A stretch of DNA of 64,000 bases from Pyrinomonadaceae bacterium (GTDB lineage: Bacteria > Acidobacteriota > Blastocatellia > Pyrinomonadales > Pyrinomonadaceae): NCBI GenBank assembly GCA_041750995.1, contig JBGSYG010000018.1, positions 18,218-82,217 of the forward strand, written 5' to 3'. Made by a program: the position numbers and the translations under genes. Below the pieces are notes generated by a model, which had not been told where the DNA came from, made no database searches, and saw nothing but the letters and a program-made list of their open reading frames with translations. This document shows positions 1,755 to 61,504 of the stretch, piece by piece; the first letter of the stretch is position 1; each line of letters opens with the position of its first letter.

Positions 1755-2020
1755 CACCGAGACGCGGAGACACGGAGAAAGGGAGATGGGGAGACACGGA
1801 GACACCGAGACACGGAGATAGTGAGACAGGGAGACTCGGAGAATTAATATGGCTACTAAAACAAAAGGAAGAATTAAGTCATCGTCCACGAGTCCCCATC
1901 TCCCCGCATCCCCGCGTCCCCGTGTCTCCCCATCCCCGCGTCCCCCCAACTCCGCGTCACGGCGTTCCCGCGTCTCCGGGTCGCGGCGTCCCCTCGTCTC
2001 CGCGTCGCCCCATCCCCGTG
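1755..2020. repeat. Mirrored octamer arrays: left arm 1755-1842 (GAGACACG-like, about 10.5 units), AT-rich centre 1843-1890, right arm 1891-2020 (CGTCTCCC/CGTCCCCG-like, about 16 units)
   Basis: GAGA recurs every 8 nt in the left arm. TC(T/C)CC recurs every 8 nt in the right arm. The right-arm words are reverse complements of the left-arm words. Confidence 0.9.
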
Positions 2021-2037
2021 CCGCCGCATCATCCCTG

Positions 2038-2508
2038 GTGGCAGTAATCATGGGTAGCAAGTCGGATTGGGAAACAATGCGGCACGCGGATCAGACGCTT
2101 ACTGATTTCGGCGTGGCGCATGAATGTAAAGTAATGTCGGCTCATCGCACCCCACACCTCGCGGCTGACTTTGCTTCCAATGCCGAGTCGCGTGGCGTAG
2201 AAATTATTATTGCTGCTGCAGGAGGCGCCGCGCATCTTGCCGGCGTGCTTGCCGCTCACACCACCTTGCCCGTGCTCGGCGTGCCGATGAAAAGTGATGC
2301 TCTTAACGGCATGGATTCGTTGCTCTCTACCGTACAAATGCCGGCGGGAATTCCTGTCGGCACGCTCGCCATCGGAAAACCCGGCGCCGTTAATGCTGCA
2401 CTTCTGGCCATCGCAATCCTGGCAAATCAACGCCCCGAACTGCGTCAACAACTGAAGCAGTTTCGCGAGAAACAGGAGCAACAAGTTCGCGCCGCGACCC
2501 TCGATTAG
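2038..2508 (+). CDS. purE: N5-carboxyaminoimidazole ribonucleotide mutase
   Basis: The motifs IMGSKSDWETM, SAHRTP, AAGGAAHLAGV and PVLGVP are present. The track ORF starts at 1849, but its first ~63 codons (PRPRVSPSPRPP...) are just a translation of the octamer array. I placed the start at the in-frame GTG 2038; ATG 2050 is equally possible. Confidence 0.85.
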   Translation: MAVIMGSKSDWETMRHADQTLTDFGVAHECKVMSAHRTPHLAADFASNAESRGVEIIIAAAGGAAHLAGVLAAHTTLPVLGVPMKSDALNGMDSLLSTVQMPAGIPVGTLAIGKPGAVNAALLAIAILANQRPELRQQLKQFREKQEQQVRAATLD

Positions 2509-2658
2509 CAGGCACTTTCCGCCATAAGTTCTTCTTGTAATCCCTTCGGCTTTAGAGCAGAATGCCGCCATTGGATTGAGCTTTTCCAGGTCAGTTCTAA
2601 GGCCCGACACCCTCTCTGTTAGAACTTCTTCTCCACTCGCGTTTTGAAGGAAACCATT

Positions 2659-5610: not shown

Positions 5611-5685
5611 CTCGGTTGAGAATCACTACTCAGTCCTTCACCAACCGGGTTCAATTACTCCCACAACCGATCAAGGAGAACCCCG

Positions 5686-5946
5686 ATGGAAAAAAATCCC
5701 AACTTAATCAACAAAGCCACCGCTAGCGATCCGCCAACCGGAGGCGGCGGCGGCGAGTCAACTACACCAAGCGCTCCTCCAACCGGAGGCGGTGGCGGTG
5801 AAGCAACTCCAAGCGATCCACCAACGGGTGGAGGCGGAGGTGACTCTTCCCTCACCAGTCCACCCACTGGAGGCGGAGGCGGTGAAGACGATGGAACCGC
5901 TGAGAGCGATCCGCCCACGGGCGGTGGCGGCGGGGAGCAGTTGTAG
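5686..5946 (+). CDS. Small repeat protein with five PPTGGGGG(E/D) units (86 aa), function unknown
   Basis: The ATG is preceded by AAGGAG (caaggagaaccccgATG). The ORF is followed by a strong intrinsic terminator on the same strand. It has no signal peptide and lies 75 nt downstream of the kinase gene. Confidence 0.55.
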   Translation: MEKNPNLINKATASDPPTGGGGGESTTPSAPPTGGGGGEATPSDPPTGGGGGDSSLTSPPTGGGGGEDDGTAESDPPTGGGGGEQL

Positions 5947-5976
5947 CGGCTTGTTTCCTCGAATTGCTGATGCAGA

Positions 5977-6016
5977 AGCCCAGGGTCAGGCCTCAACCGT
6001 ACCCTGGGCTTTTTTT
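5977..6016 (+). terminator. Rho-independent terminator
   Basis: A 10-bp stem, AGCCCAGGGT (5977-5986) pairing with ACCCTGGGCT (6001-6010), runs into a T tract of seven T. Confidence 0.75.
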
Positions 6017-6086
6017 GTGAGTTCGAAACGCAGCGAGACCAGAACTGGCAGTTAGTGGGAACAGTTCTGCACTAGTTCCGAGCGCT

Positions 6087-6362
6087 TCAATCGCGTCGTC
6101 GAGTCAGCAGAGCAATCACGGCGACGAACAGAGCCGAACCAATAATTGACCAGACGATGGGAAAGGTTGTCGTTCCAATCTGAAGATTGAAAAGTTCCGG
6201 TAGGCCAAGCCTGCGGGCGATCCAGACTCCCAGTACGGCCCCCACGAAACCCAAGGCGATCGAAACCAAACAACCGCCACGCGAGAAGCCAGTGATCGCC
6301 TGGCCCAGAGCGCCGCAAACCCCGGCAACGAGTAACAGAACAATTAGATCAAAAATAGTCAT
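6087..6362 (-). CDS. GlsB/YeaQ/YmgE-family transglycosylase-associated small membrane protein
   Basis: 91 aa with three hydrophobic Gly-rich helices (LLLVAGVCGALG, ALGFVGAVLGVWI, IIGSALFVAVIALL), typical of this family. Confidence 0.75.
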   Translation of the reverse strand: MTIFDLIVLLLVAGVCGALGQAITGFSRGGCLVSIALGFVGAVLGVWIARRLGLPELFNLQIGTTTFPIVWSIIGSALFVAVIALLTRRRD

Positions 6363-6380
6363 ACGCCCCCCTGTAAATTT

Positions 6381-6522
6381 CGGATTGTGGATTGCCGATT
6401 GCGGATTGGCATCTACTCCGCAGTCATCATTCGTTAATCATCATTCGAATCGTCATTCCGCATTATCACTCCTCAATCATCATTCGAAAATCGGAAATCG
6501 CCAATTGGCAATCTTCAATCAC
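6381..6522. repeat. Heptamer arrays (GGATTGN x4 at 6381-6410; ..CATCATT/..TCAAT units at 6424-6522)
   Basis: Direct reading shows a period of 7. The array ends inside the stop-codon region of the amidohydrolase gene. Confidence 0.8.
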
Positions 6523-7823
6523 CGTATCTCATTGCGATAGACTTCTCCGCCTTTCATTACAAACTTTACTCGTTCTAATTCGCTGATAGTCGTCAATGGA
6601 TCGCCGCTTACAGCAATGATGTCCGCGTACTTGCCTGTTTCAATCGCGCCAAAGTCATTCGCGCGCTGCAGGAGGTCCGCCGCCACGGTCGTGGCCGACT
6701 GGATCGCCTGCATCGGTGTCATTCCATAGCGCACCATGTATGTCAGTTCTTTGGCCTGGTTTTCCGTCCACGCATAACCACCGGCATCGGTTCCGTATGC
6801 GATTCTCACGCCTTTGCGAACCGCGACAGGAAAAGCCTTCGCTTCCAGATCGCGCATCGTAAGCCAGATTGGTGCGCCCGCCGCGGCGCGACCCTCGGCA
6901 ACATACACGCCGACGTAGATCGTCGGGCACCAGTAAACTCCCTGTTTCACCATCCGATCCATCAGACCGGCGTCGAGACCGTAGCCATGTTCGATGGAGT
7001 CGACACCAGCGCGGAGCGAGGCATCGATGCCTTCCCAGCCCATCGCGTGTGCCGCTACTCTGCGACCGAGTCGATGCGATTCATCCACCAGCGCTTTCAT
7101 TTCCTCTTCCGTAAAGTTCACCCATGAATGAAGCGCGCCATCTTTCAGGAAGTAGCGGCGGTCTGCATAGAACTTGATCCAATCGGCACCAAACTTGACC
7201 TGTTCGCGCACCGCGCGACGAATGTTGTCTGGCCCGTCAACAATCTGCACGCCTTCGGGCATTCGCAATTCCCACGAATAGCCCTGGAGGGGGTACATCC
7301 CCGTGGCCGAGAAAGCGCGCGTCGCGACAAACATTCGCGGACCGGGCACGACGCCGCGATTAATTGCCTGTTTCACATCAACATCCGCGTACATTGCGCC
7401 TTCGGTCTCCAGGTCGCGCATTACAGTGAAGCCATTGAGTAGCGCGATGCGCGCAGCGACCGTGGCCCGGATAGTTCGGTAGGGGATCGACTCTTTCAGT
7501 AACTGCACGTCGTAATCGGCGGTGGTGATGTCGCCCTGAAGCAAGATATGAGTGTGACAATCTGCGAGACCCGGTAATACCGTTGCTCGCGAAAGATCGA
7601 TGACGTGGGTACCGAGTGGCGCTGCCCGTTCCACTGCCGCGAGAGGACCGACCGTTCTAATGCGCTCGTCCAAGATCAGGATTCCCTGATCTTGCAGTAC
7701 GCGCCCGGCACGCACATCGATCAGACGTCCGGCCTTGATTAGCGTTGAACGTCCATTTTGGCCACTTGCAGTCGCGAGCAGCGCAAAACAAATGGTGATA
7801 ATTGCGGGCAGTAGTTTTTTCAT
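6519..7823 (-). CDS. Secreted amidohydrolase-family metallo-hydrolase
   Basis: It has the HTH metal motif (LADCHTHILLQGD), later HAMG and EHG/DAG motifs, and the C-terminal GKYADIIAV...V.MKGG signature of the amidohydrolase superfamily. I moved the start to ATG 7823 (MKKLLPAIITICFALLATASG signal peptide, AGGAAAGG upstream). The track start 7970 adds 49 unlikely residues. Confidence 0.85.
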   Translation of the reverse strand: MKKLLPAIITICFALLATASGQNGRSTLIKAGRLIDVRAGRVLQDQGILILDERIRTVGPLAAVERAAPLGTHVIDLSRATVLPGLADCHTHILLQGDITTADYDVQLLKESIPYRTIRATVAARIALLNGFTVMRDLETEGAMYADVDVKQAINRGVVPGPRMFVATRAFSATGMYPLQGYSWELRMPEGVQIVDGPDNIRRAVREQVKFGADWIKFYADRRYFLKDGALHSWVNFTEEEMKALVDESHRLGRRVAAHAMGWEGIDASLRAGVDSIEHGYGLDAGLMDRMVKQGVYWCPTIYVGVYVAEGRAAAGAPIWLTMRDLEAKAFPVAVRKGVRIAYGTDAGGYAWTENQAKELTYMVRYGMTPMQAIQSATTVAADLLQRANDFGAIETGKYADIIAVSGDPLTTISELERVKFVMKGGEVYRNEIR

Positions 7824-8049
7824 GACCTTTCCTAATGGATGCCTTGGTTTTGCGGGCTTCAATTTAAGACTAAAGCCGTCAAGCAACTCCGCTTGTCTGC
7901 GGTTGCGCCAATTAATCCCAACCACTGAAGAAATTGTTTCCTTGTGGAGGCCGGGTTCCAATGGTGCCACCCTTAAATACTACCGATTTGTTCGAACCAG
8001 GCGTCGACACAAATTAGCTCACCATCGAACTCTCAATCAACGTATTCGC

Positions 8050-10397: not shown

Positions 10398-10408
10398 CTG
10401 AGGACCAT

Positions 10409-11634: not shown

Positions 11635-11700
11635 AATCGGCAATCGCCAATCCGCAATCGCCAATCCGCAATCGCCAATCCGCAATCGCCAATCGGGCAA
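11635..11700. repeat. Heptamer array AATCGCC/AATCCGC, about 9 units
   Basis: Read directly. It lies in the divergent spacer between egtD and the vWA gene. Confidence 0.9.
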
Positions 11701-11745: not shown

Positions 11746-13452
11746 ATGACTTTTGTGTTTGCGCGAAAGCTCTTGACCACTTTGTTCCCTGCAATCGTAT
11801 TCATGTTCGCTTCGGGTTCTACCACCCACGCCCAGAGTTATCAGCGCGAAATCGACACCCCGGAAAAGGTTTCGATTTCCGTAATAAATCGCAATGGGCG
11901 CGCCAGTATCATCGCCAGCGATGAGCAACAGAAGAAGGTCACGATAGAAGCCTCTTCCCGCGGCGCCGCGGTTGATCCGTCTGATCTGCAAATCGAAGCC
12001 AAGGGCGCCTCGATCGAAATCACTGTACGCGATCGCTCTGAGAGAGATCGCATCGATCTAGTCGCACGTATCCCGGTGCGCTCCAAAGTGAAAGTCGAGA
12101 CTGACGGCGGGGCCATCGACGTGGTTGGCAATCTGGAGCTTGCCGAAGTGCAAACAGACACCGGCACAATACACGCCGACGTCCCGCTCGAAGCTTTGCA
12201 ATTCAAATTCTTGTGGCAAGCGAGTAAACCGCGTTACCTCAGTGACGTCGAACTTCCGGAGGTCAAGGAAAAGCGCGGCGGTGTCTTTTCGATTTCCGGC
12301 AAGCTGGGCGAGAAGAAACCGAAAAAAGAAGAGCGAGTGCGTCTGGATTTCTTAACGCAACGTGGCGTTGTCCTGCTGAACGTTGATCCCAGCATGGTGC
12401 CCAGCGACTTGCGCGAACGGCCACTGACGGAAGCATCGCGAGCGATCGTGCGCAGTGGTGATCGCGAACTTGTTGACGCGATCCGCAAAGTTTCTCCCAA
12501 GCTGTTTGGCGATTATGCGAAGACTCTGCCGCCGATCGAAAAAGAGCCGACCCTGGTGCGTCGCGCCGCGCCCGGTCCTGTTGTCTCAATGGTTACACCG
12601 CAATTGATGAGGGTGAACGCCAGCGTCACCGATCGTAATGGCCGAGCCGTCGGCGGTATGAAAGAAAACGACTTTTCGGTACAGGAAAATGGAGTCGAAC
12701 GGCAGGTTAAGAGTGTTACGCCTGCCAATGAACCCTTCAATCTGGTGTTGCTCCTCGACGTTTCCGGGAGTGTCGAAGAGCGGATCGATTTCATCCGCAA
12801 AGCTGCGCGCGACTTTCTCAACACTGCTAGCCCGCAAGATCGTATTTCAATCATCAGCTTCCGCGACGACATTCAGGTGATTTCTGACTTCACCACCAAC
12901 CGGCGCTTGTTATCAAAAAAACTTGATGAGATTGACGCTGGGGGTGCGACTGCACTTTACGATGCTCTTGCCTATGTGCTCTCCGAGCCCTTGAAAAAGT
13001 TGCACGGAGAACGCACCGCGATAGTTGTGTTGTCAGACGGCGACGATAACAAATCCTTTGTCCCCTTTCCTGCGTTGCTTGAAGCTTTTAATGAGTCTGG
13101 AGCTCTCATCTATCCCCTGTACGTCCCCTCCGGCTTGATCCCGGAATCAAGTGTGCCTAAGTCGGAAACAACGCGAGACCCTTTGCGGACTCGCTACCTA
13201 ACGTTGACCACGCGAGCTGAAGAAGAAGGTCGGAAACTGGCGGCGGTCTCGGGTGGCGTCTATTACCCGGTGCGGCGCATTGAAGATCTGCAACGCGCGT
13301 ATGACGATGTGGTCCTCCAGCTGCGCACCGCTTATACGATCACGTACGCTTCAAACTCAACACCATCAGGTAACCGGCGAGTTCGTGTCAGGGCAAATCG
13401 CGAAGGTGCTTCAGTGCGGCTTAGTCCAGTGGTGACCGTCTCTAACCCTTAG
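11746..13452 (+). CDS. Secreted two-part protein: N-terminal beta-rich domain plus C-terminal vWA domain (acidobacterial VWFA-related type)
   Basis: Signal peptide MTFVFARKLLTTLFPAIVFMFASGSTTHA. The vWA MIDAS motif is LLDVSGS. The C-terminal half is collinear with the two vWA proteins at 36145-38320. Confidence 0.8.
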   Translation: MTFVFARKLLTTLFPAIVFMFASGSTTHAQSYQREIDTPEKVSISVINRNGRASIIASDEQQKKVTIEASSRGAAVDPSDLQIEAKGASIEITVRDRSERDRIDLVARIPVRSKVKVETDGGAIDVVGNLELAEVQTDTGTIHADVPLEALQFKFLWQASKPRYLSDVELPEVKEKRGGVFSISGKLGEKKPKKEERVRLDFLTQRGVVLLNVDPSMVPSDLRERPLTEASRAIVRSGDRELVDAIRKVSPKLFGDYAKTLPPIEKEPTLVRRAAPGPVVSMVTPQLMRVNASVTDRNGRAVGGMKENDFSVQENGVERQVKSVTPANEPFNLVLLLDVSGSVEERIDFIRKAARDFLNTASPQDRISIISFRDDIQVISDFTTNRRLLSKKLDEIDAGGATALYDALAYVLSEPLKKLHGERTAIVVLSDGDDNKSFVPFPALLEAFNESGALIYPLYVPSGLIPESSVPKSETTRDPLRTRYLTLTTRAEEEGRKLAAVSGGVYYPVRRIEDLQRAYDDVVLQLRTAYTITYASNSTPSGNRRVRVRANREGASVRLSPVVTVSNP

Positions 13453-13584
13453 TCGCAACGAATGCGTCCTTAGGGCGCTAGCGCAGAGGGTGGATCTAGC
13501 TAAAATCCAAATATTAGTAAGTGAGCAGTTGATCCAGCCAGCGGTTTTACTTTTCATCTCCCATCCTGCATTCTTTTCATTCTT

Positions 13585-14994
13585 ATGAGCCAACCGCTCT
13601 TTTCCGCCCTTTTTGATGAGACTGAACGCCGGCCACAAACTGTTTCCGAACTGACAGGGGCGGTGCGGAAATCTCTGGAGTCGCGTTTCTCTTCAGTCTG
13701 GGTTGAAGGGGAAATCTCAAACTTTAAGGCCCACTCATCGGGTCATTGGTACTTCACGCTCAAAGACGAGAGCGCACAATTGCGCGCGAAGTGCTTTCGC
13801 TCTACCAACAGTCGCATTCGTTTTCGTCCCACTGACGGTCTGTACGTGCGTGCTCGCGGACGGTTAAGCGTTTACGAACCGCGTGGCGAGTACGAGCTGG
13901 TAGTAGAAGCACTCGATCCGGTAGGCGAAGGCGCCTTACGAATTGCCTTCGAACAACTACGCGACAAGCTACAAGCGGAAGGTTTGTTTGCGCGCGACCT
14001 AAAACGTCCTCTCCCAGTTTTTCCTCGCCGCGTGGGCATCGTGACATCGCCAACGGGCGCCGCCATTCGCGACATACTCAATGTGATCTCACGCCGCACG
14101 CGGACCGTGCATGTGCTCTTTTCGCCAGCTCGGGTTCAGGGCGAGGGTGCTGGACGTGATATTGCGCGGGCAATTCGCCTGATAAACGAACACCACAAAG
14201 CAGCCGTCCAACGCGGTAAATCAGATGAGCTGGTCGACGTCTTGATTGTGGGTCGCGGCGGGGGCTCAACCGAAGACCTGTGGGCTTTCAACGAAGAAGA
14301 AGTTGCGCGCGCGATTCGCGCCTCGGCTATTCCTGTGATTTCGGCCGTCGGTCATGAAACAGACTTTACGATTGCGGATTTCACAGCCGACTTGCGCGCG
14401 CCCACTCCTTCAGCCGCAGCGGAACTGGTCGCGGCAAAGGAAGATGAGCTCTGCTCCACTCTTGCGGAGTTGGGAAGGAACCTTTCGCGGCTGATGCGCT
14501 TCCGAATTAGTTCCGCCCGCAACCGCGTACAGCAACAAGCATTGTCGCAAGCATTTGATGAAGTACGCGGACGCTTGCGAGCGGCGCATCGGGAAAGCAG
14601 CGCGGCCACGCATCGACTGCATTTGTTGATGACACATGCCCTGCGCACCACCCATGGTCGTTCGGAGCGGATCGCTTTTCAGTTATCTCCGGAGCGGTTG
14701 CAGGCACGTTTGGGACAGGCCAGAATGCGCTTCAACGCCGCTCAATCGGATTGCAACGCCGCATTTCTTTCTCGACTGGAAATACCCCGTGCGCGCTTGG
14801 GCCGCGTAGCGGCTTCGCTCGATGCACTCTCGCCCCTCGCAGTGCTGCAACGCGGCTACGCGATTGCCGAAGATGCCGACGGGCGTTTGTTAAGAGACGC
14901 AAGTTCAGTTTCGCCGGGCGATCAGCTGCGTGTCCGCCTGGCGATGGGACGCATTACAGCGCGAGTGGAAGACGCTGAAACTAATGACGAATAA
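13585..14994 (+). CDS. xseA: Exodeoxyribonuclease VII large subunit
   Basis: It has an N-terminal OB fold (VWVEGEISNFK..SGHWYFTLKD) and a GRGGGSTEDLWAFNEE core. xseB follows it. Confidence 0.9.
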   Translation: MSQPLFSALFDETERRPQTVSELTGAVRKSLESRFSSVWVEGEISNFKAHSSGHWYFTLKDESAQLRAKCFRSTNSRIRFRPTDGLYVRARGRLSVYEPRGEYELVVEALDPVGEGALRIAFEQLRDKLQAEGLFARDLKRPLPVFPRRVGIVTSPTGAAIRDILNVISRRTRTVHVLFSPARVQGEGAGRDIARAIRLINEHHKAAVQRGKSDELVDVLIVGRGGGSTEDLWAFNEEEVARAIRASAIPVISAVGHETDFTIADFTADLRAPTPSAAAELVAAKEDELCSTLAELGRNLSRLMRFRISSARNRVQQQALSQAFDEVRGRLRAAHRESSAATHRLHLLMTHALRTTHGRSERIAFQLSPERLQARLGQARMRFNAAQSDCNAAFLSRLEIPRARLGRVAASLDALSPLAVLQRGYAIAEDADGRLLRDASSVSPGDQLRVRLAMGRITARVEDAETNDE

Positions 14995-15262
14995 CGAAAC
15001 AAAACCCAGGACCTTCGAATCATCACTTGAGGCGCTCGAGCAGATTGTGCATCAGCTTGAGGAAGGCGATCTACCGCTCGAAAAGAGTCTTGAACTCTTC
15101 GAGCAAGGAATCCGGCTTTCGCGCGAATGTCAGGAACGACTGGGTCAGGCTGAGCGTCGCATCGAAGTTCTGCTGCGCGACAGCCAGGGCCGGCCCACGG
15201 TCAGCGAATTCGCCGCTGAGCAGGACTCGAATGGTTTTCCTGACGGCGGGCAACAAAGGTGA
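14984..15262 (+). CDS. xseB: Exodeoxyribonuclease VII small subunit
   Basis: FESSLEALEQIVHQLEEGDLPLEKSLELFEQGIRLSRECQ is typical of XseB. I placed the start at ATG 14984, which overlaps the xseA end by 11 nt; the track start is 14930. Confidence 0.85.
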   Translation: MTNNETKPRTFESSLEALEQIVHQLEEGDLPLEKSLELFEQGIRLSRECQERLGQAERRIEVLLRDSQGRPTVSEFAAEQDSNGFPDGGQQR

Positions 15263-16182
15263 TGACGTCGCTTTCTCTCAAGGATGACGCCGAGCTTGCT
15301 CCGCTTGCTGATTTTTTCAGCCGCGGCCGCGCACTCATCGACGCAAAGCTGGAGGAACTGCTCCCGGCGGAGACTCGCGAGCCGGTTGCCGTTCACAGCG
15401 CGATCCGTTGGAGTGTATTTGCTGGGGGTAAACGTTTTCGACCGCTCTTGTTGCTCGCTGCAGGGGAGACGCTCGGAGCTGGGCGCGATGAATTACTGGC
15501 GACCGCCTGCGCGCTCGAGATGATTCATACCTATTCCCTCATCCATGACGATCTGCCTTCGATGGATAACGACGATCTACGTCGCGGCCGCCCTACTTGT
15601 CACATCCGCTTTGGAGAAGCGACTGCGATTCTCGCTGGCGATGCGTTACAGAGTCTTGCTTTTCAAACGATCGCCGAGGACGAAGGCCTCGACGCTTCGC
15701 AACGTCTCAAGTTGATTGCTGAATTGGCTGGCGCTGCGGGAACGCCGCACGGCATGGTGGCCGGTCAAGCCCTGGATCTTGAGGCTGAGTCGCGGGAGGT
15801 TAGCGGGATAGAACTGGAGCAGAGTCATGGCTTAAAAACTGGAGCCTTGATTAGCGCCGCGGCGCGCTGTGGTGCGCTGATCGCTAACGCTGACGAAGTG
15901 GAATTGAATCTGATCACACGTTACGCCGAGCAGCTTGGTTTGCTGTTCCAGATTACCGACGACCTGCTTGATGTCACTGCGAATGCTGAGACTCTGGGAA
16001 AAACTCCAGGGAAGGATGCCCGCTCGCGGAAAGCTACTTTCCCCAGCATTTATGGCATTGAGGCGACACGCGAACGTGCGCGCGGGGTGCACCAGGAAGC
16101 GCTCGCCGCGCTGGCAGATTTAAACCGCAACACCGCCCAGCTGCATGCAATCGCGAATTTTATTCTTGAGAGGAAGTCGTGA
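15259..16182 (+). CDS. ispA: (2E,6E)-farnesyl/geranylgeranyl diphosphate synthase
   Basis: The two Asp-rich motifs LIHDDLPSMDNDDLRRG and FQITDDLLD are present. The gene sits in the conserved xseA-xseB-ispA arrangement. Confidence 0.85.
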   Translation: MMTSLSLKDDAELAPLADFFSRGRALIDAKLEELLPAETREPVAVHSAIRWSVFAGGKRFRPLLLLAAGETLGAGRDELLATACALEMIHTYSLIHDDLPSMDNDDLRRGRPTCHIRFGEATAILAGDALQSLAFQTIAEDEGLDASQRLKLIAELAGAAGTPHGMVAGQALDLEAESREVSGIELEQSHGLKTGALISAAARCGALIANADEVELNLITRYAEQLGLLFQITDDLLDVTANAETLGKTPGKDARSRKATFPSIYGIEATRERARGVHQEALAALADLNRNTAQLHAIANFILERKS

Positions 16183-16187
16183 AGGAT

Positions 16188-16403
16188 GGTCTTTGGATTT
16201 TGGTCTTTGGTCTTTGATTTAGCTGTGATTGAACTTGAACTTTGAACTTTGTTCTTTGTACTTGGTTTTTAGCTGCGCTGCTTGAGAATGTCGACGACAA
16301 GAATCAAGTTACGTAGGCGAACAAAGTTCGAAGTTCAAAGTACTAGGATACTAATTTTTCCAAAGACCAAAGACCAAAGACCAAAGACCAAAGACCAAAA
16401 ACC
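16188..16403. repeat. Composite mirrored heptamer arrays: left arm 16188-16270 (GGTCTTT.. then GAACTTT..), centre 16271-16318, right arm 16319-16403 (CAAAGTTC.. then CAAAGAC x6)
   Basis: The right arm carries the reverse-complement words in reversed order, giving a potential imperfect hairpin with arms of about 85 nt. Confidence 0.9.
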
Positions 16404-16413
16404 TACTTTTAAC

Positions 16414-17085
16414 ATGCTGATTGATCTTAGTCACACCGTCGAGCACGGCATGATCACTTACAAAGGTCTGCCGGGCCCGATCATCTCCGACCACCTCAGC
16501 CGCGAAGCTTCGAAGTCGAATTATGAAGCCGGTACTGAGTTCCATATTGGCCGGATTGAGATGGTAGCCAACACCGGCACCTACCTCGACAGCCCCTTTC
16601 ATCGTTATCCCGAAGGCAAAGATCTGTCTCAGCTTGAGCTGAGCTCGCTCGCCAATCTTGAAGGTGTGCTAGTGCGTTGTTTGACTGCCGGAACCGATCC
16701 GAGCCAGCGCGGAATTTCTACGGAAACGCTGGCCAGCAGAAACTTAAAGGGCAAGGCTGTTTTGTTCCACACCGGATGGGATCGTCATTGGCGCACTGAG
16801 AAGTATTCTGATGGCACTCATCCTTTCCTAACCGCCCAGACTGCGGAATTTCTCGCAAACGCGCGACCAGCCATCGTAGGAATCGATTCTTTCAACATCG
16901 ACGATACCAGTGTGGGCCGGCGGCCCGCCCACTCGCTCCTGCTCGCCGCGGAGATTCTCATCGTCGAACACCTCTGCAACCTCGACGCGCTTTCCGACTC
17001 AGACTTCCGCTTCTTCGCCGTCCCCGTAAAAGTAAAAGCCTTCGGCACCTTTCCCGTGCGCGCCTTCGCCGTCAGACGAGAATAG
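16414..17085 (+). CDS. Cyclase-family (kynurenine-formamidase-like) protein, metal motif degenerate
   Basis: The protein starts MLIDLSHTVEHGM. The region ANTGTYLDSPFH aligns with the family motif HxGTHxDxPxH but lacks two of the His residues. I moved the start to ATG 16414; the track N-terminus (KTKDQRPKTKDQ) is translated repeat. Confidence 0.7.
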   Translation: MLIDLSHTVEHGMITYKGLPGPIISDHLSREASKSNYEAGTEFHIGRIEMVANTGTYLDSPFHRYPEGKDLSQLELSSLANLEGVLVRCLTAGTDPSQRGISTETLASRNLKGKAVLFHTGWDRHWRTEKYSDGTHPFLTAQTAEFLANARPAIVGIDSFNIDDTSVGRRPAHSLLLAAEILIVEHLCNLDALSDSDFRFFAVPVKVKAFGTFPVRAFAVRRE

Positions 17086-17279
17086 ACCGCCAAGGCGCCA
17101 AGAAGAAGTGAGCTTTGAACTTGGTGCTTCGAATTTTGTTCGCTTATGAAAAAATTCGAGCGGAGATGTTGCGGCTGATGCTGTTGAAGCCAAAAGCCCT
17201 GGGTACTAGGTACTAAGAACAAAGCCCCAGTTCGTTTCATTCTCCTTGGCGAACTCCGCACGCTTGGCGACTTGGCGGT
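17086..17279. repeat. Mirrored repeat arms between convergent genes: ACCGCCAAGGCGCCAAG.. at 17086-17145 versus ..CTTGGCGACTTGGCGGT at 17201-17279
   Basis: The reverse complement of 17086-17102 (CTTGGCGCCTTGGCGGT) nearly matches 17263-17279. Inner words TTTGAAC/GAACAAAG are also mirrored. Confidence 0.75.
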
Positions 17280-17306
17280 TGCTTTTAGGAAAGCAAGGAA
17301 AAAATT

Positions 17307-20712: not shown

Positions 20713-20746
20713 AAAGAAAAAGGGCGGCCACGAATTGAAGCCGCCC
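20713..20746 (-). terminator. Rho-independent terminator of the peptidase gene
   Basis: On the minus strand, GGGCGGC pairs with GCCGCCC (20740-20746 with 20722-20728) and is followed by TTTTTCTTT. Confidence 0.65.
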
Positions 20747-20778
20747 TCTGCCTACTACTTTCTGCCTTCTGCTTCAAG

Positions 20779-29311: not shown

Positions 29312-29378
29312 TCCGAAATACCGGGCCGAAATATCGAAATATCGGAAATATCGAAATATCGAAATATCGAAATATCGG
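29312..29378. repeat. Octamer array GAAATATC, about 6 units plus flanking half-units
   Basis: Read directly (cgaaatatcgaaatatcggaaatatcgaaatatcgaaatatcgaaatatcgg). Confidence 0.9.
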
Positions 29379-42140: not shown

Positions 42141-42154
42141 TAGCGTAGCCGACT

Positions 42155-42226
42155 GATTGCCGATTGTAGATTTTCGATTAGCTACTTTCGTTCAGGGCTA
42201 TTAACAATTGGCATCGTCAATCGTCA
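42155..42226. repeat. Short mirrored heptamer words: GATTGCCGATTGTAGATTTTCGATTAG versus CAATTGGCATCGTCAATCGTCA
   Basis: Read directly. It lies in the spacer between the rluD start and the serC stop. Confidence 0.7.
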
Positions 42227-44145: not shown

Positions 44146-44200
44146 TTAGATCTCAGATTTCAGAAGTTTTCAGATTTAAGATCTGAGATCTCAGATTTTA
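44146..44200. repeat. Heptamer-like array (TCAGATT / AGATCTC words)
   Basis: Read directly. It overlaps the serA stop codon. Confidence 0.75.
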
Positions 44201-45409: not shown

Positions 45410-45419
45410 GATTAAATTT

Positions 45420-45610
45420 CCGATCGCCGATTGCCGATTGCCGATTGCCGATTTAATCTTTGGTCTTTGGTCTTCGGTCTTTGGTCTTAGGTTTTGGCGC
45501 CTCACTTCTTGGTTTTGTCCTTCGGTGTTCGCCACCTTTCGCATCATTCTGGAAAACAAAGACTCAAGACCAAAGACCCAATTGGCAATTGGCAATCGCC
45601 AATCTCCAAT
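45420..45610. repeat. Composite mirrored heptamer arrays: left arm 45420-45497 (CGATTGC x4 then GGTCTTT x5), centre 45498-45555, right arm 45556-45610 (AAGACC.. then CAATTGG/CAATCGC..)
   Basis: The right arm is the reverse complement of the left-arm words in mirrored order. Confidence 0.9.
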
Positions 45611-46836
45611 TAGATCTTGTGTATCAACAATCCATCCCGCAGCTTCGGCTCGAACCAGGTCGACTTTGGCGGCATGATCTCACTGGCATCGGAAACTCTC
45701 AGCAGATCGTCAACAGTCGTCGCGTGCAAAGAAAAAGCGACTGCGGCTTTTCCTTCATTCACGAGACGCTCGAGTTCTTTGGTGCCGCGCAAGCCACCGA
45801 CAAAGTCGATTCGCTTATCGGTGCGAACGTCTCCGATTCCGAGGATTGGATCCAACAACCGGTCTTGTAAGACAGACACATCAAGTGAATTCACCAGCCC
45901 TGCCGCGGGCGCTGTGCCCTTACCCAGCCGCAGCTCGTACCAACGGCCGTCGAGATACATGCTCCAGATCTGAGGCTGCGCGGGCGCAGGATTGCCGTTT
46001 TCGACTACGCTGAAAGCCTTTCTTAGTTCCGCCAGAAACGATTCCGCCGTCATCCCATTAAGATCCCTAACCACGCGATTGTAAGGAAGAATCTGCAACT
46101 GATCGTCGGGAAAGATAACGGTAAGAAAGAAGTTGTATTCCTCGTCACCGGTGTGTCCGAAACTTTGATCTCTGAGTTCCGTACGGGCCCGGCTGGCGCT
46201 AGCGGCACGATGATGGCCGTCAGCAATGTAAAGGTAAGGAACTTCGCGAAAGGCCTGAACAAAACGAACCGCATCGGGCACATGCCAGATAGTGTGCTGA
46301 ATCCCATCGTCGGCGGTGAAGTCATAGAGCGGCTTCGTCATCGTCGTCTCAAGCGTCATGTTGTCGATGTCTGGCCGCGCGCGGTATGTGAGAAAGACGG
46401 GACCGGTCTGCGCCTGCAACACCATCATGTGACGAGTCCGATCATCCTCCTTGTCGCGGCGCGTGCGCTCATGCTTGCGAATCAAATCCTGATCGTATTC
46501 GTCAACCGCGCAACAGGCGACGAGGCCTACTTGTTCGTGCTCGCCCATGACCAGCCGGTAAAGATACAAACTGGGAACTTCTTCAGTCTCGAGCGGACAA
46601 GCTGAAATCAGCTGTTGAAAATTCTCGAGTGCTCTGCGGTAAACGGCGTCGCTGTAAAGATCGGTGCCTTCAGGCAAATCGATCTCCGGCCTAGATACAT
46701 GGAGAAAGCTCAGAGGATTACCCGCCGCCAGGGCCGCAGCTTCTTCGCTGTTCACCACGTCATAAGGCACGCTGGAGACTTGCCTGGCCTTTTCCGGGGG
46801 CGGACGCAGAGCACTGAAAGGATGAATGACCGCCAC
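45610..46836 (-). CDS. DUF1015-family protein
   Basis: (M)AVIHPFSALRPPPEKA...VPYDVV is the typical DUF1015 start, and ADGHHR is in the core. I placed the start at GTG 46836 with AGGAGG 5 nt upstream; the track start is 46884. Confidence 0.8.
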   Translation of the reverse strand: MAVIHPFSALRPPPEKARQVSSVPYDVVNSEEAAALAAGNPLSFLHVSRPEIDLPEGTDLYSDAVYRRALENFQQLISACPLETEEVPSLYLYRLVMGEHEQVGLVACCAVDEYDQDLIRKHERTRRDKEDDRTRHMMVLQAQTGPVFLTYRARPDIDNMTLETTMTKPLYDFTADDGIQHTIWHVPDAVRFVQAFREVPYLYIADGHHRAASASRARTELRDQSFGHTGDEEYNFFLTVIFPDDQLQILPYNRVVRDLNGMTAESFLAELRKAFSVVENGNPAPAQPQIWSMYLDGRWYELRLGKGTAPAAGLVNSLDVSVLQDRLLDPILGIGDVRTDKRIDFVGGLRGTKELERLVNEGKAAVAFSLHATTVDDLLRVSDASEIMPPKSTWFEPKLRDGLLIHKI

Positions 46837-49766: not shown

Positions 49767-49806
49767 TAAAAATAAAAAGGGCCTGTGGCGAAATTCGCTA
49801 CAGGCC
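49767..49806 (-). terminator. Rho-independent terminator of csbD-like gene (symmetrical, possibly bidirectional)
   Basis: GGGCCTGT (49778-49785) pairs with ACAGGCCC (49799-49806). It is flanked by an A-run on one side and a T-run on the other. Confidence 0.75.
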
Positions 49807-49829
49807 CTCTTTTTCGTTGGTGTGAAAAA

Positions 49830-52000: not shown

Positions 52001-52038
52001 AACAAACGAATAGGGCGGACTTATTGGGTCCGCCCTAT
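52001..52038 (-). terminator. Probable intrinsic terminator of the TonB-dependent receptor gene
   Basis: TAGGGCGGAC (52011-52020) pairs with GTCCGCCCTA (52029-52038). On the minus strand it is followed by TTCGTTTGTT. Confidence 0.6.
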
Positions 52039-56885: not shown

Positions 56886-56965
56886 TCGTAAAATTGTGAA
56901 CTCCTGACGCTAGCAAATGAACTGAAAAGGGTCAAACCAAGGCAATGCGGGAGTTTGCAAAACCT

Positions 56966-57207
56966 TAATCTTTGGCGATTGCGATTGGCTTATTGACTGC
57001 TTAGTGGCGATTGAACCAGCTATGGGCCATTCAAGAGTTCAAGTGTGTTGAAGTTCTGAAGGATTCAGTCGTGAGGGAGACGCGCGATGGACTTCCTAGT
57101 GTGATTTATTTCTTATTCTTCCTGGCGAACTTGGCGATCCTTGGCGCCTTGGCGGTGAAATCGTTGCAGTCTGCCACTCTCCAATTGGCAATTGGCAATC
57201 GGCAACC
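56966..57207. repeat. Several short arrays: GGCGATT words (56966-57014), CTTGGCG words (57121-57156), CAATTGG/CAATCGG words (57181-57207)
   Basis: Read directly. The first and last blocks are reverse complements of each other. Confidence 0.7.
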
Positions 57208-57215
57208 GAAATTAC

Positions 57216-58037: not shown

Positions 58038-58039
58038 TT

Positions 58040-58456: not shown

Positions 58457-58566
58457 AATTTTCGTCCCTTAAAAATTGCCTTTCCTGGACAAGGTTAGGT
58501 TCTGTCGGCAAAAATGCCGTTAGGATCCGTCTCCAATTTTTTTAGCTCCATTAGCAGCGACACAAG

Positions 58567-58682
58567 GCGCTCTTCCGGAGCGCGAGAATTCATCAGAATT
58601 TGTGAAGTATGAACATTCCGCTCCTGCGGAGCTTCTAAAATGAAAGCCAGGTTTAGCTATAAACATGCGGCTCCCTCGGAGC
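58567..58682. repeat. Second cluster of GC-hairpin/ATGTTTAT modules (three units)
   Basis: The units are GCGCTC-ttccg-GAGCGC (58567-58583), tatgaacattcc+GCTCC-tgc-GGAGC (58608-58632) and tataaacatgcg+GCTCC-ctc-GGAGC (58658-58682). On the minus strand each hairpin precedes ATGTTTAT/ATGTTCAT, downstream of tyrS. Confidence 0.75.
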
Positions 58683-58693
58683 TTTGTCTACTT

Positions 58694-59920
58694 TCACCTT
58701 CCACTTACTCGAACAAAACGGCGTTTGCCAACCTTGATGTCGAATCCTGGCTTGCCCGGTTGGACGGGATAGGATTTGTTCGTGTTCGGATCGCACCGCT
58801 CGCCATCAACGTATACTCCGCCTTGTTCAATGAGCCGACGCGCTTCAGCTTTTGAGGAAGCTAGTTCAAGTTCCACAAGCAAGTCTCTCAACTCCCACGT
58901 ATCAAAGCGAACGGTTCGCTCTTCAATCTCTTCGGGTGCTTCCTTACGTCTGAAGATTCGATTGAAATCCTCTTCTGCAGTGTTTGCCGCGTCAAGGGAA
59001 TAAAAGTCAGTAATGATTCGCTTTGCCAACTCGGCTTTCAAATCCCGCGGGTTAGACTGTCCCGCCGCGGCAGTTTCGCGCAGCCTATTGATCTCTGATA
59101 ACGGAAGATCGGTCAGCAGTTCATAGTACCGCCACATTAGGTCATCCGAGATCGACATTACTTTTCCGAAAATCTCCGCGGGTGGTTCGTTGATGCCGAT
59201 GTAATTCCCGAGGCTCTTCGACATCTTCTGCACGCCATCAGTTCCTTCAAGGAGCGGCATGATCACACAGACCTGCGCTTCCTGCTGGTACTCGCGCTGC
59301 AGATTCCGCCCCATCAGTAGATTGAACTTTTGATCGCTGCCACCAAGTTCAACATCTGCTTGCAGAGCGACCGAGTCGTACGCCTGCGTCAAGGGATAAA
59401 GCAGCTCGTGGAGTGCGACTGGCTTTTCTTCTTGCAAACGCTTCGCGAAGTCGTCGCGTTCGAGAATTTGTTTCACTGTGACATGCGCGGCTAGTCGAAT
59501 GAAACCAGCGGAGCCCAGCTTGTCCATCCACTCCGAGTTGAAGCGCATTTCCGTCTTCTCGGGATCGAGCAGCTTGAAGATCTGTGTCTTATAAGTTTCA
59601 GCGTTGGCATTGATTTCATCGCGCGTTAATTGCGGTCGCGTGGCGGAGTTGCCTGAGGGATCGCCGATCAGTCCCGTGAAGTCGCCAATCAAAAAGATGA
59701 CTGTATGGCCGAGCTTCTGAAACGCACGCAGCTTGCGAATGACTACGGTGTGGCCCAGATGGATGTCTGGTGCTGTTGGATCGACGCCCAGTTTTACGCG
59801 CAAAGGTTTTCCGGTTGCAGCCGCCTTCTCGAGCTTGGTGCGTAATTCATTCTCACGAATGATGTCCACCGTGCCCTGACACAGGATTTCAAGTTGTTCG
59901 TCGATTGTCATTGTTGTCAT
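58694..59920 (-). CDS. tyrS: Tyrosine--tRNA ligase
   Basis: The HIGH-type motif (PDIHLGH), KMSKS (VQKMSKSLGN) and a C-terminal S4-like domain are present. I placed the start at ATG 59920 (or 59911); the track TTG 59977 start adds translated repeat (DSRFTIHDLRFT). Confidence 0.9.
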   Translation of the reverse strand: MTTMTIDEQLEILCQGTVDIIRENELRTKLEKAAATGKPLRVKLGVDPTAPDIHLGHTVVIRKLRAFQKLGHTVIFLIGDFTGLIGDPSGNSATRPQLTRDEINANAETYKTQIFKLLDPEKTEMRFNSEWMDKLGSAGFIRLAAHVTVKQILERDDFAKRLQEEKPVALHELLYPLTQAYDSVALQADVELGGSDQKFNLLMGRNLQREYQQEAQVCVIMPLLEGTDGVQKMSKSLGNYIGINEPPAEIFGKVMSISDDLMWRYYELLTDLPLSEINRLRETAAAGQSNPRDLKAELAKRIITDFYSLDAANTAEEDFNRIFRRKEAPEEIEERTVRFDTWELRDLLVELELASSKAEARRLIEQGGVYVDGERCDPNTNKSYPVQPGKPGFDIKVGKRRFVRVSGR

Positions 59921-59958
59921 CGTAAATCGTAAATCGTGAATCGTAAATCGTGAATCGC
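59921..59958. repeat. Heptamer array CGTAAAT/CGTGAAT, about 5.5 units, abutting the tyrS start codon
   Basis: Read directly. Confidence 0.9.
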
Positions 59959-59962
59959 CTTT

Positions 59963-60060
59963 GGAGTGCGAAGGCAAGCGCAGCGCGACACCGCTTTGGG
60001 TCTCATCGTGGCTTTAATACCCCAAACCGCCGTCGTCGCTTGGCGCTGCCTGCGCACTGC
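59963..60060. repeat. Imperfect GC-rich inverted repeat (arms 59963-60000 and 60020-60060)
   Basis: The reverse complement of arm B (GCAGTGCGCAGGCAGCGCCAAGCGACGACGGCGGTTTGGG) aligns with arm A (GGAGTGCGAAGGCAAGCGCAGCGCGACACCGCTTTGGG) with several mismatches and indels. Confidence 0.6.
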
Positions 60061-60163
60061 TATTGTGAAGCAAATTTCTTCACACAAAGTTCTGAGCGGC
60101 GGTGTTTGCCTAACAGAACACCTCTGCGTCTTTTAGAGTCTTAGACCTACATCGAGGAGCATC

Positions 60164-61336
60164 ATGAGCATACTGTCAATCGCCGCCGCGACCATTTTCT
60201 GTGGAGTTGGCTGTACGTTTTACGGAGTCGAGGCCCTCAACACCGATAGCCTCGTCCAGCAACAAAGCGCCAACGAAATCTCGTCCGACACTAGAGCAAA
60301 CATCCAAAAACTCGCTTCCGCAGATGCCAGGGAACGCACGGACGCTGCCTGCAGATTGGGTAAAGCGCGCGCGGTGGCCGCGATTCCGGGCTTGATCCAG
60401 TTGCTTAGCGATGACACGCCTGTAGAGCAGCCGGTGTGCGAAGAAAAAGGAAACTGGCGCGGCCGGGGAATGGACAAGACAACGCCTGGAGAGATGGCAG
60501 CGGTTGCTCTATCCCAAATCGGCAATGAAGCCGTTGAGCCGCTAATCGCCGCGTTGCGAAGCAGCGCCTGGCAAGCACGAGCGAACGCCGCGTTTGCCCT
60601 GGGACTAATTCATGATGACCGTGGAATAGAACCATTGATTTCGGCAACCCGAGATCCTGAGTCGCGCGTGCGCGAAAAGGCTTGCTGGTCGCTGGGACTC
60701 GTCGGTGACGATCGCGCGGTGGAGCCGTTGAGTGTCGCCCTGAAAGACGCCGACGCACGCGTGCGTTCCCAGGCGGCGTGGGCGCTAGGCTTGAAAGGCG
60801 ATGAGCGTTCCGTCGAGCCTCTGATACTCGCATTGCGGGATCAAAACGAAGAGGTGCAATCACAAGCGGCTTGGGCGCTCGGGCTTAAGGGCGACGATCG
60901 CGCCGTCGAACCTCTTACGATTGCATTGACGGCTGGTCACGAAGAGGTCCGGTCGCAAGCAGCGTGGGCTCTCGGTCTCAAAGGAAATTCAAAAGCAGTG
61001 GCGGCTCTAATCGTGGCGCTACGAGACCCCAACGCCGAGGTGCGTTCGCAGGCGGCGTGGGCCCTGGGACTGAAAGGCGACGAGCGCGCAGTTGAACCGC
61101 TCCGTAACGCTTTGAACGACTCAGACGCAAACGTGCGCAAACAGGCGCGTTGGGCTTTGGATCTCCGAGACCTAGAGAGCGGTCACCGCCGCGTGAAAAT
61201 CAAGAGCCGGGATATTGATGTGAATGTTGACGTTGACCCGAAGGTGGAAGTGGATAGCCCGGATGTCGACGTTGATGTTCGCGTCGAGCCCAAAGTGAAA
61301 GTTGAACCGAAGGTCAAAGTGAGAGTGAAGACCTAA
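60164..61336 (+). CDS. HEAT (PBS-lyase-type) repeat protein with hydrophobic N-terminus and alternating-charge C-terminal tail
   Basis: It has about 8 units of the type (E/R)VRSQAAWALGLKGDERAVEPLIxALRD. GAGGAG lies 5 nt before the ATG. The C-terminus is DVNVDVDPKVEVDSPDVDVDVRVEPKVKVEPKVKVRVKT. Confidence 0.85.
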   Translation: MSILSIAAATIFCGVGCTFYGVEALNTDSLVQQQSANEISSDTRANIQKLASADARERTDAACRLGKARAVAAIPGLIQLLSDDTPVEQPVCEEKGNWRGRGMDKTTPGEMAAVALSQIGNEAVEPLIAALRSSAWQARANAAFALGLIHDDRGIEPLISATRDPESRVREKACWSLGLVGDDRAVEPLSVALKDADARVRSQAAWALGLKGDERSVEPLILALRDQNEEVQSQAAWALGLKGDDRAVEPLTIALTAGHEEVRSQAAWALGLKGNSKAVAALIVALRDPNAEVRSQAAWALGLKGDERAVEPLRNALNDSDANVRKQARWALDLRDLESGHRRVKIKSRDIDVNVDVDPKVEVDSPDVDVDVRVEPKVKVEPKVKVRVKT

Positions 61337-61338
61337 AG

Positions 61339-61504
61339 AATTGAGTCATTGAGTCATTGAGTCATTGTGTGATTGTGTGATTGTGTGATTGTGTCATTTG
61401 AAGAGTGACCAATGATTCGATGATTTAATGATCCGATGACTCAATCACTAAATCGCTCAATGACTCATTCACTAAATCGCTCAATCACTAAATGACTCAA
61501 TCAC
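61339..61504. repeat. Mirrored octamer arrays: left arm 61339-61398 (ATTGAGTC x3, ATTGTGTG x4); right arm 61408-61504 (GACTCAAT / CACTAAAT / CGCTCAAT units)
   Basis: The period is 8. GACTCAAT is the reverse complement of ATTGAGTC. The right arm covers the last ~8 codons of purN. Confidence 0.9.

Follow-up and report, generated by a model that had tools for sequence, protein, structure and literature searches.

A 64,000 nt stretch of a Pyrinomonadaceae genome (GenBank assembly GCA_041750995.1; contig JBGSYG010000018.1, positions 18,218 to 82,217), referred to below as the window, carries tandem arrays of 7 or 8 nt words in the spacers between its genes, and these arrays form one class of spacer-filling quasi-palindromes. 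The plan of an element is a word array, a unique centre and an array of the reverse-complement word, and two word families can be nested in the order A-B-centre-B'-A'. The arrays are real, intergenic, mirrored, situated 3' of genes and found throughout the lineage, where they turn over fast. The window has a GC content of 54%, and the genes identified using Pfam are of housekeeping and signalling type (icd, purE, xseA/B, ispA, serA, tyrS and purN), with several Ser/Thr kinases carrying TPR repeats and VWA proteins also encoded. In the preliminary description of the window, the labels given to serA (44198-45409, minus strand), purN (61481-62092, minus strand) and an amidohydrolase gene (6519-7970, minus strand) were essentially right. 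The host had also been judged not to be cyanobacterial, and this was borne out by a search with SerA as the query, which identified 80 loci, every one in metagenome-assembled genomes (MAGs) of Pyrinomonadaceae/Blastocatellia (Acidobacteriota), at up to 97% identity. A planctomycete origin, to which the Ser/Thr kinases, the VWA proteins and the GC content had pointed at first, was rejected on this result. The whole window produced zero matches to Rfam at gathering thresholds, and a tRNA/tmRNA scan of the window found none.

Arrays were called using Tandem Repeats Finder (TRF) and, separately, by an autocorrelation scan with shuffled windows as the control, and hairpin potential was assessed using an inverted-repeat search and minimum free energy (MFE) folding with z scores. 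Of the 12 loci previously named, 10 have arrays of period 7 or 8 according to TRF, and at the remaining two (17086-17279 and 42155-42226) just 2-3 scattered copies of a word and its complement are present, though readable by eye. The autocorrelation scan found 8 period-7 runs and 4 period-8 runs in the window and none with a period of 6 or 9-12, compared with 0.05 period-7 and 0 period-8 runs in shuffled windows. As had been proposed, most of the arrays are in mirrored pairs able to form hairpins with arms of 20-130 nt. Mirroring is strong in four spacers (1754-2049, 16183-16414, 45410-45609 and 61337-61480), moderate in two (17086-17306 and 6360-6525) and weak in two (42141-42226, and 56886-57215, where pairing is confined to the outer arms), and four arrays (starting at 11635, 29327, 44148 and 59919) are single and unpaired. 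The elements in the window, including one that was absent from the earlier list (20743-20772), are as follows.

1755-2018: largest element, identified by TRF and in the sequence, with 5' arm (GAGACACG)x11 at 1755-1842, unique centre at 1843-1882 and 3' arm (CGTCCCCG)x17 at 1883-2018; fills the spacer from the icd stop (1753) to the purE ATG (2050); inverted repeat of 71 nt, 70% complementary; MFE z -5.6 (plus strand) and -7.2 (minus strand).

6377-6522: GGATTGN heptamers at 6377-6408, a centre with a 14-nt period at 6424-6486, then units of the complementary type ..CAATC.. at 6489-6522; intercistronic, with the stop of the amidohydrolase gene (6519-6521) on one side and, on the other, the point where a small Transgly_assoc gene (6087-6362) starts, both genes being on the minus strand; fold z -3.0 on the plus strand and 0.4 on the minus strand.

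11635-11695, plus strand: unpaired (AATCGCC/AATCCGC)x8.7 in the divergent egtD/VWA spacer, 50 nt 5' of the VWA start (11746); no inverted partner and no strong fold on the plus strand.

16187-16403, plus strand: nested element, (GGTCTTT)x4 at 16187-16216, (TTGAACT)x5 at 16229-16267, centre, (CAAAGTT)x3 at 16319-16346 and (CCAAAGA)x6 at 16360-16403; occupies the spacer between the stop of ispA (16182) and the ATG of the cyclase gene (about 16415), with Logan contig L001 identical as far as 16389; arms 90-95% complementary; MFE -88.9, z -9.4.

17086-17279: outer stem of CGCCAAG x2 (17088-17102) and CTTGGCG x3 (17245-17277) around a 140-nt, partly structured interior; convergent spacer, bounded by the stops of the cyclase (17085) and metallophosphoesterase (17307) genes; outer stem 17 bp, z -3.3.

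20743-20772: weak (GCCTTCT)x4.3 just 3' of the stop of a prolyl oligopeptidase gene (20779, minus strand).

29327-29377, plus strand: unpaired (CGAAATAT)x6, 27 nt past the stop of a strictosidine-synthase-like gene (29300).

42155-42226: small, weak element, GATTGCC-GATTGTA-GATTTTC-GATT, about 25 nt, then CAATTGGCATCGTCAATCGTCA; occupies the aminotransferase/rluD-like spacer, with genes on the minus strand; z -0.9/-1.5.

44148-44198, minus strand: (AATCTGA/GATCTCA)-type heptamers, self-complementary through AGATCT palindromes; adjoins the serA stop (44198-44200); array at the same site in relatives L002 and L003, missing from L005-L010.

45416-45610, minus strand: nested element, (GATTGCC)x5 at 45416-45453, (GGTCTTT)x6 at 45457-45497, centre, (AAAGACC)x3 at 45557-45578 and (CAATTGG/CAATCGC)x4.7 at 45578-45610; fills the spacer bounded by the stop of the DUF1015 gene (45610-45612) and the ATG of serA (45409); arms 78-83% complementary; z -8.7/-6.9.

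56966-57207: paired outer arms GGCGATTGCGATTGGC (56974-56990) and CCAATTGGCAATTGGCAATCGGCAA (57181-57207) with unpaired inner (CTTGGCG)x3-4 at 57123-57155; RDD/thiolase spacer, minus strand; overall fold weak, z -2.1/+0.6.

59919-59957, minus strand: unpaired (ATCGTAA/ATCGTGA)x5.6 ending at the candidate tyrS start (59916-59918, minus strand), in 5' leader position.

61340-61504: octamer element, 5' arm (ATTGAGTC)x3 then (ATTGTGTG)x4 at 61340-61398, and 3' arm at 61412-61504 with a 24-nt super-period (GACTCAAT/CACTAAAT/CGCTCAAT); convergent spacer past the stop of a HEAT gene (61336), covering the final 8 purN codons (stop 61481); arms 73-76% complementary; z -5.7.

Sharing of words between unlinked loci was found largely as first reported, with GATTGCC-family words at five window loci (6390-6507, 11639-11688, 42155-42206, 45429-45598 and 56977-57194) and GGTCTTT and CTTGGCG at two each, but the second of the two reported GAACTTT loci is marginal, as 17110 reads GAACTTG. 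An assembly artefact is ruled out by identity to independently assembled Logan contigs and by the same elements recurring across many assemblies. One contig (L001; SRR28170469) is 100% identical to window 12855-16389 and terminates within an array, and a second (L082; SRR28170469), corresponding to approximately 59928-61393, is identical to the window and begins inside the 59919-59957 array. L-numbers are used here for the loci and contigs of relatives, L001 and L082 being from Logan and L203-L215 viral. Contig ends inside arrays are expected of a k-mer assembler that meets tandem repeats, and the same type of element is present in assemblies from many studies. Look-ups with exact proteins for copy-number variants within the population recovered two short contigs only, both ending in arrays.

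Statistics were drawn from the window together with the 80 loci of the relatives (1.37 Mb in total), and 120 metagenome contigs were used as a second sample for array counts and polarity. Period 7 is dominant at the relatives' loci (211 arrays), followed by periods 9, 8 and 10, and it is likewise dominant in the metagenome contigs (374 arrays). The arrays had been described as staying out of coding sequence and this holds across the set, with 17 of 185 period-7 and 3 of 33 period-8 arrays (9%) embedded in long open reading frames (ORFs) compared with 67% of random positions; arrays of period 6, by contrast, are mostly coding. An excess of mirrored arms over random orientation had been set beforehand as a test. 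With a mirrored partner defined as at least 2 tandem copies of the reverse-complement word no more than 400 nt away, an inverted partner was found for 137 of 182 period-7 arrays (75%) and a direct partner for 5 of 182 (3%), while 10 of 947 distant control windows matched, so that a mirrored excess is clear. Period-8 arrays also have inverted partners (22/31). Array length has a mode of 30-33 nt (~4 units) and a maximum of 17 copies, the gap between arms has a median of 37 nt, and the median element is 113 nt with a fold of -0.45 kcal/nt. Across the family, more than 80 distinct heptamer words were identified.

An element is present in 14% of the spacers between co-directional genes, in 12% of convergent spacers and in 6% of divergent ones, and 100 of 129 elements lie between co-directional genes, often where there is no room for a promoter. 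In the co-directional spacers, the element starts a median of 4 nt past the upstream stop codon, ends a median of 13 nt before the first in-frame ATG/GTG and covers a median of 72% of the spacer. Most elements are 3' of genes, and in the window only 11635-11695 and 59919-59957 are in leader positions, one of the settings in which phase-variation (contingency) repeats switch expression through their copy number. As stable stems directly follow stop codons, are also found in convergent spacers (17086-17306 and 61337-61504) and are about half as common in divergent ones, a function as intrinsic or bidirectional transcription terminators, or as insulators, could be considered, and termination had been among the roles first suggested. 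However, on the sense strand only 3 of 56 elements have a run of at least 4 T no further than 12 nt from the 3' arm, and the predominance of co-directional gene pairs is also against such a function. Two canonical terminators with a GC-rich stem and T-tract occur separately in the window (49778-49808 and 52010-52038, the second bidirectional), and the scan does not pick up the arrays, indicating that this genome uses ordinary terminators apart from the heptamer hairpins. Identity with canonical terminators is therefore rejected, and a role as intrinsic or bidirectional terminators, or as insulators, is highly improbable.

A comparison of the spacer between the DUF1015 gene and serA covered 76 relatives. 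In 16 relatives this spacer measures 2-18 nt; 60 spacers have a length of at least 40 nt, and 47 of these fold at z<-3 (median -5). Twelve of these long spacers include no tandem array, and 8 of the 12 have a strong fold formed by a plain long inverted repeat. In L042, L069 and L028, a common plain inverted repeat (TAGGACAGACATTCCTGTCTG ... CAGACAGGAATGTCTGTCCTA) with differing loops is present at the site of the array. About 20 or more unrelated word families make up the hairpins, including GATTGCC, GTCCAAA, ACTGACC, TTTGATT, GTGATAA, GAGACTA, TCGAGAC and CGCAAAGA, and the presence, absence and word type of the element are intermixed on the SerA tree. The closest relative, L002, carries a decayed copy. 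L004 falls within the GATTGCC clade of the window (SerA 92% identical to that of the window) and carries a GTCCAAA/TTGGAC element (734-811), the centre of which is ~65% identical to a centre in the distant L031, and a whole element may have been exchanged or replaced in L004. The finding of 47 strong folds built from about 20 or more unrelated words indicates that the architecture is conserved and the sequence is not; the invariant feature at this site is a fold-back beginning at the stop codon, with a sequence that is free and quick to turn over. Across the relatives, a given spacer keeps its architecture, whereas the word and the copy number vary and the element itself may even be missing.

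One explanation for this pattern is that the elements are selected RNA devices in which the stem-loop performs a task for the operon, such as differential mRNA stability, processing by RNase III/RNase E or hairpin-mediated translational coupling to the next cistron. With the element set directly against the stop codon and finishing ~13 nt short of the following start codon, folding would draw the two codons together at the foot of the stem, and equal roles have been proposed for the hairpins of short tandemly repeated repetitive (STRR) sequences (PMC2670836). Strong hairpins whatever the sequence in 47 of the 60 orthologous spacers, some without arrays, and the lower occupancy of divergent spacers are consistent with this explanation, as is a weak, borderline trend towards a better fold on the sense than on the antisense strand (33 vs 21, p=0.057). 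However, an excess of G.U-type over A.C-type mismatches on the sense strand was sought and is absent (103 vs 93), which favours a symmetric process at the DNA level, or rapid turnover, over a finely tuned RNA. The device would also be dispensable, as the DUF1015 gene and serA are only 2-18 nt apart in 16 relatives and the copy in L002 is decayed, and elements are found in convergent spacers, where coupling is irrelevant. Selected RNA devices are considered a possible, though doubtful, explanation.

The two arms of an element appear to change separately. Arm lengths are weakly correlated (r=0.37), and near relatives differ by single units within one arm. The order of variant units was above the mean of a unit-permutation null in 26 of 47 cases (p=0.34), which is not beyond chance, and mirrored order of variant units inside the arms was therefore rejected, with mirroring limited to the word family and the order of blocks (A-B...B'-A'). 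Taken together, the weak correlation, the one-arm differences and the unmirrored order of units suggest that slippage acts on each arm independently, with complementarity kept at the level of the word family.

The favoured explanation, which is given a probability of roughly 60%, is that the elements are quasi-palindromes driven by slippage and tolerated, or weakly selected, as intercistronic stem-loops. Replication slippage would add or remove units independently in each arm, and complementarity at the level of the word would be maintained by template switching from arm to arm, by selection for a compact fold, or by both. Template switching is a known mechanism of quasi-palindrome correction. 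An insert that folds on itself would hold the upstream stop and downstream start codons adjacent, and it would thus be tolerated or mildly favoured 3' of genes and be about half as frequent in divergent spacers that contain promoters. In mRNA, the element would form a long imperfect stem-loop which, having no U-tract, is not an intrinsic terminator. By analogy with STRR hairpins and with repetitive extragenic palindromic (REP) sequences, the most plausible role would be as a barrier to 3' exonucleases or as a processing site that preserves translational coupling, and the effect of the element would be dispensable.

Several points weigh against this explanation. All of its functional steps are inferred, and the absent excess of G.U-type mismatches speaks against strong selection on individual pairs at the RNA level. 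As a word followed by its reverse complement (W...rcW) reads identically on both strands, any polarity is intrinsic to the element, and polarity was found to be fixed for each of the 13 words with at least 2 elements (13/13). The arrangement GATTGCC...GGCAATC outnumbers the reverse by 32:1 among pairs called by TRF, and a pattern search placed GATTGCC first by 36:3 (94 metagenome hits away from contig ends). The 5' arm has more G than C in 27 words and the opposite in 5 (p=1e-4, one vote per distinct word), with 11 vs 5 in the metagenome set. The same words turn up again at loci that are not linked and, in other genera, at sites that are not orthologous, and the word in L004 has been swapped for one that is characteristic of a distant clade, the centre being similar. 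Pure slippage combined with tolerance fails to explain the polarity, the excess of G in the 5' arm, the reuse of words or the swap in L004. In addition, the spacer is only 2-9 nt in some relatives, and the seeding of a new hairpin there is unexplained. The reuse of words and the strict polarity keep alive, each at a low probability, models based on dissemination or on a specific binder.

Two simpler causes were considered. Avoidance of Rho as the source of G-first polarity is weakened by the unpaired arrays, which show no bias between G and C on the sense strand (20 vs 18) and so do not shun C-rich sense strands. A device providing stop codons in all frames was rejected, as GATTGCC and GGTCTTT include no stops; 45 of 80 words have a stop on either strand.

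Selfish spread, also suggested at the outset, has some support from the polarity and word-reuse data. The elements could be mobile palindromes that resemble REP doublets forming hairpins (REPINs), MITEs (miniature inverted-repeat transposable elements) or foldback elements, in which ready-made W...rcW units are copied by an enzyme acting in trans or through inter-locus recombination. Recurrence of words at unlinked loci in the window would fit such a process, as would AAGTGAT at 3 loci in 21 kb of L043, an octamer family (GAGACGCG/CGTCCCCG) at non-orthologous positions in the window, L030, L025 and L051, the strict polarity of each word, the presence/absence polymorphism at one site and the resemblance of the L004 element to that of L031. 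However, the centres are unrelated in all comparisons, with no similarity found between window loci or among 19 metagenome GATTGCC elements, and a MITE with a conserved core is rejected for this reason. The more than 80 distinct words and the unequal and variable copy numbers of the arms are also against mobility. No target duplications were seen on inspection by eye, and no transposase or REP-associated tyrosine transposase (RAYT) was found among the window genes scanned against Pfam. Mobile palindromic elements are thus quite unlikely to account for the arrays.

Thirteen viral contigs from IMG/VR (L203-L215) also contain (GATTGCC)3. None of these arrays is mirrored and they are uninformative; 6 of 10 hits away from contig ends fall inside long open frames, and in L210 the array is directly 5' of a start codon, beside a GATTTTC-type array.

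Protein binding was considered as a reason for the 7-nt period, which could be the footprint on one arm of a single-strand-binding protein, for example a cold-shock protein, or of a DNA-binding protein. The heptamer period is dominant, words in which G+T exceeds A+C in the 5' arm outnumber the opposite (33 vs 12), and no tetramer is more over-represented in the set of distinct words than AATC/GATT (17 occurrences against 5.3 expected, ~3-fold), which is common also to the Xanthomonas, Nostoc and trnL-intron words discussed below. The 5'-arm (GTCTTTG)n at 16187 and 45457 equals the Bacillus subtilis CspB consensus GTCTTTG/T (PMC1904285), making cold-shock proteins the lead candidate for a binder, and these proteins were earlier proposed to bind TAACTGA repeats (PMC4679880). 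However, with more than 80 words, chance would give a match to the CspB consensus at roughly the 5% level, and the match is a lead only. The 5' arms are not generally rich in T (T-A, 21 vs 16) or in pyrimidines (purine-pyrimidine, 24 vs 21), and arrays of octamers and of 9-10-nt units behave like those of heptamers. Binding to the arrays as their primary basis is improbable. A polar, sequence-specific device, in which the G/T-rich arm that is transcribed first would supply heptamer sites for a putative single-strand-binding protein that gates closure of the hairpin, or alternatively a new type of self-propagating palindrome marked by the strict polarity, is unlikely.

Among known systems, the closest are heptamer repeats of other bacteria. 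STRR heptamers form hairpins between hupS and hupL in several Nostocales, and effects on transcript stability or translational coupling have been proposed (PMC2670836). Like the cyanobacterial STRR, which include the hupS-hupL hairpins and those upstream of hoxW, the arrays described here consist of 7-bp tandem units, are intergenic, belong to several word families per genome and form potential hairpins between co-transcribed genes. However, STRR hosts are heterocystous or filamentous cyanobacteria, whereas the genomes nearest to the window are Pyrinomonadaceae/Blastocatellia MAGs of the Acidobacteriota, the words are different, and mirrored pairs are the rule (75%). The preliminary description had taken mirrored pairing to be foreign to STRR, and this is contradicted by the STRR hairpins already reported and by paired arrays in Xanthomonas (PMC4692102) and in a Nostoc intron (PMC4476775). 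In Nostoc, GGGGAYT repeats include 'only a few paired repeats' (PMC4692102).

In Xanthomonas, 70 of 186 GGGAATC repeat sets are in convergent inverted pairs, about 75% of the arrays are in convergent pairs beside stop codons, and the pairs are always convergent for the G-rich word; the mode is 4 units, and the position and pair type are kept between species while length varies (PMC4692102). The elements described here share with these repeats (Rehm et al. 2015) a mode of ~4 units, proximity to or overlap with stop codons and a G-rich arm that comes first, as shown by the proportion of arrays with an inverted partner, the excess of G over C in the 5' arm and a median distance from stop to array of 4-5 nt. 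They differ in that Xanthomonas has one G-tract word with the potential to form G-quadruplexes, whereas more than 80 words, nested arms and octamers are found here and G-tracts are not; the words read in the window (GATTGCC, GGTCTTT, GAACTTT, CTTGGCG and ATTGAGTC) include no GGG tracts, as would be needed for a G-quadruplex.

The P6b element of the Nostoc tRNA-Leu(UAA) group I intron has heptamers (TDNGATT or NNTGAGT) on both arms with 7-nt indels on one or both sides, and there have been repeated replacements, at the same site, of one class of motif by the other (PMC4476775). This replacement resembles the turnover of words between the DUF1015 gene and serA, and words containing GATT and TGAGT are also present here, though P6b is within a self-splicing intron and has two motif classes only. 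TAACTGA repeats in Beggiatoaceae, cyanobacteria and Bacteroidetes are of a single word and almost all direct (1 inverted set in 170); they are intergenic, have 2-6 copies, often end at a start codon and are oriented to the downstream gene (PMC4679880). The unpaired arrays at 59919-59957 and 11635-11695 are in a like position, but mirrored pairs and many words are found here.

Like REP sequences, bacterial interspersed mosaic elements and REPINs, the elements are intergenic, mostly 3' of genes and hairpin-forming, and the polarity of REPINs is also fixed. REP sequences are conserved palindromic units of 20-40 nt with a GTAG or CGTC tag that are mobilised by RAYTs, and a REPIN consists of two inverted units around a spacer. 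Here, in contrast, the arms consist of many different short words repeated in tandem, and the window genes scanned against Pfam include no RAYT. Drosophila foldback (FB) transposons have long inverted arms of short tandem units and a variable centre, and are of kilobase scale and associated with a transposase. As they are eukaryotic, the analogy is architectural only. REP hairpins have roles in protecting the 3' ends of mRNA (PMC3733652). In the literature searched, no earlier account of such elements in Acidobacteria was found, nor was the polarity of each word or the rule that the 5' arm has more G than C found stated for these elements. The arrays therefore represent a known type of repeat in a new phylum, distinguished by a larger vocabulary, nested arms of several words and octamer versions.

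The arrays have consequences for annotation and assembly. Where the repeats include no stop codons, calls of the longest ORF run 5' through them (44198-45595, 1849-2508, 16282-17085 and 58694-59977), and it is likely that automated annotation makes the N-termini of serA, purE, the cyclase and tyrS wrong and too long. With the plausible starts of purE at 2050, the cyclase at about 16415 and serA at 45409, the arrays are outside these genes. The 3' arms of GATTGCC elements often end in a variant, ...AATCGGAAAT, a few nt before the downstream ATG (L088, L094, L118, L138 and the window at 45416-45425, among others), and this variant may be a weak ribosome-binding site carved from the last repeat. 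Arrays also break short-read assemblies, leaving Pyrinomonadaceae MAGs fragmented, and they are probably under-represented in MAGs.

Two other repeats were found in the window. A GC-rich hairpin of ~100 nt with no tandem units (59960-60062) is located in the divergent tyrS/HEAT spacer, and its arm of 40 nt matches, at 95% identity, two copies in inverted orientation in the distant L023 (12614-12653 and 12710-12749), which suggests, from sequence similarity, a separate dispersed family of REP-like palindromes in these genomes. A repeat with a 45-nt period (x2.7) at 5725-5843 is within small overlapping ORFs, neither of which has a Pfam match. The first (5686-5946, plus strand) would encode repeats of DPPTGGGGGE type and the second (5655-5996, minus strand) repeats of SPPPPPVGGSL type, and either strand, or neither, may be coding.

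Heptamer tandem repeats have been known in bacterial spacers since 1990, and they have no accepted function. They are now found at high density in an abundant family of soil Acidobacteriota, with about 1 spacer in 8 occupied in the relatives and about 1 in 4 in the window. The many sequenced relatives provide a natural experiment in which an orthologous insert is either absent or a hairpin, built from about 20 or more words, and the turnover of words, the fixed polarity and the excess of G over C in the 5' arm are regularities that any mutational, selfish or regulatory mechanism must explain. If a polar device or a self-propagating palindrome were involved, the convergent pairs of Xanthomonas and the STRR hairpins would also be explained. 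If occupancy of the arm by a protein were the basis, hundreds of operons in these bacteria would carry a switch of intercistronic processing or coupling that depends on the level of that protein or on temperature.

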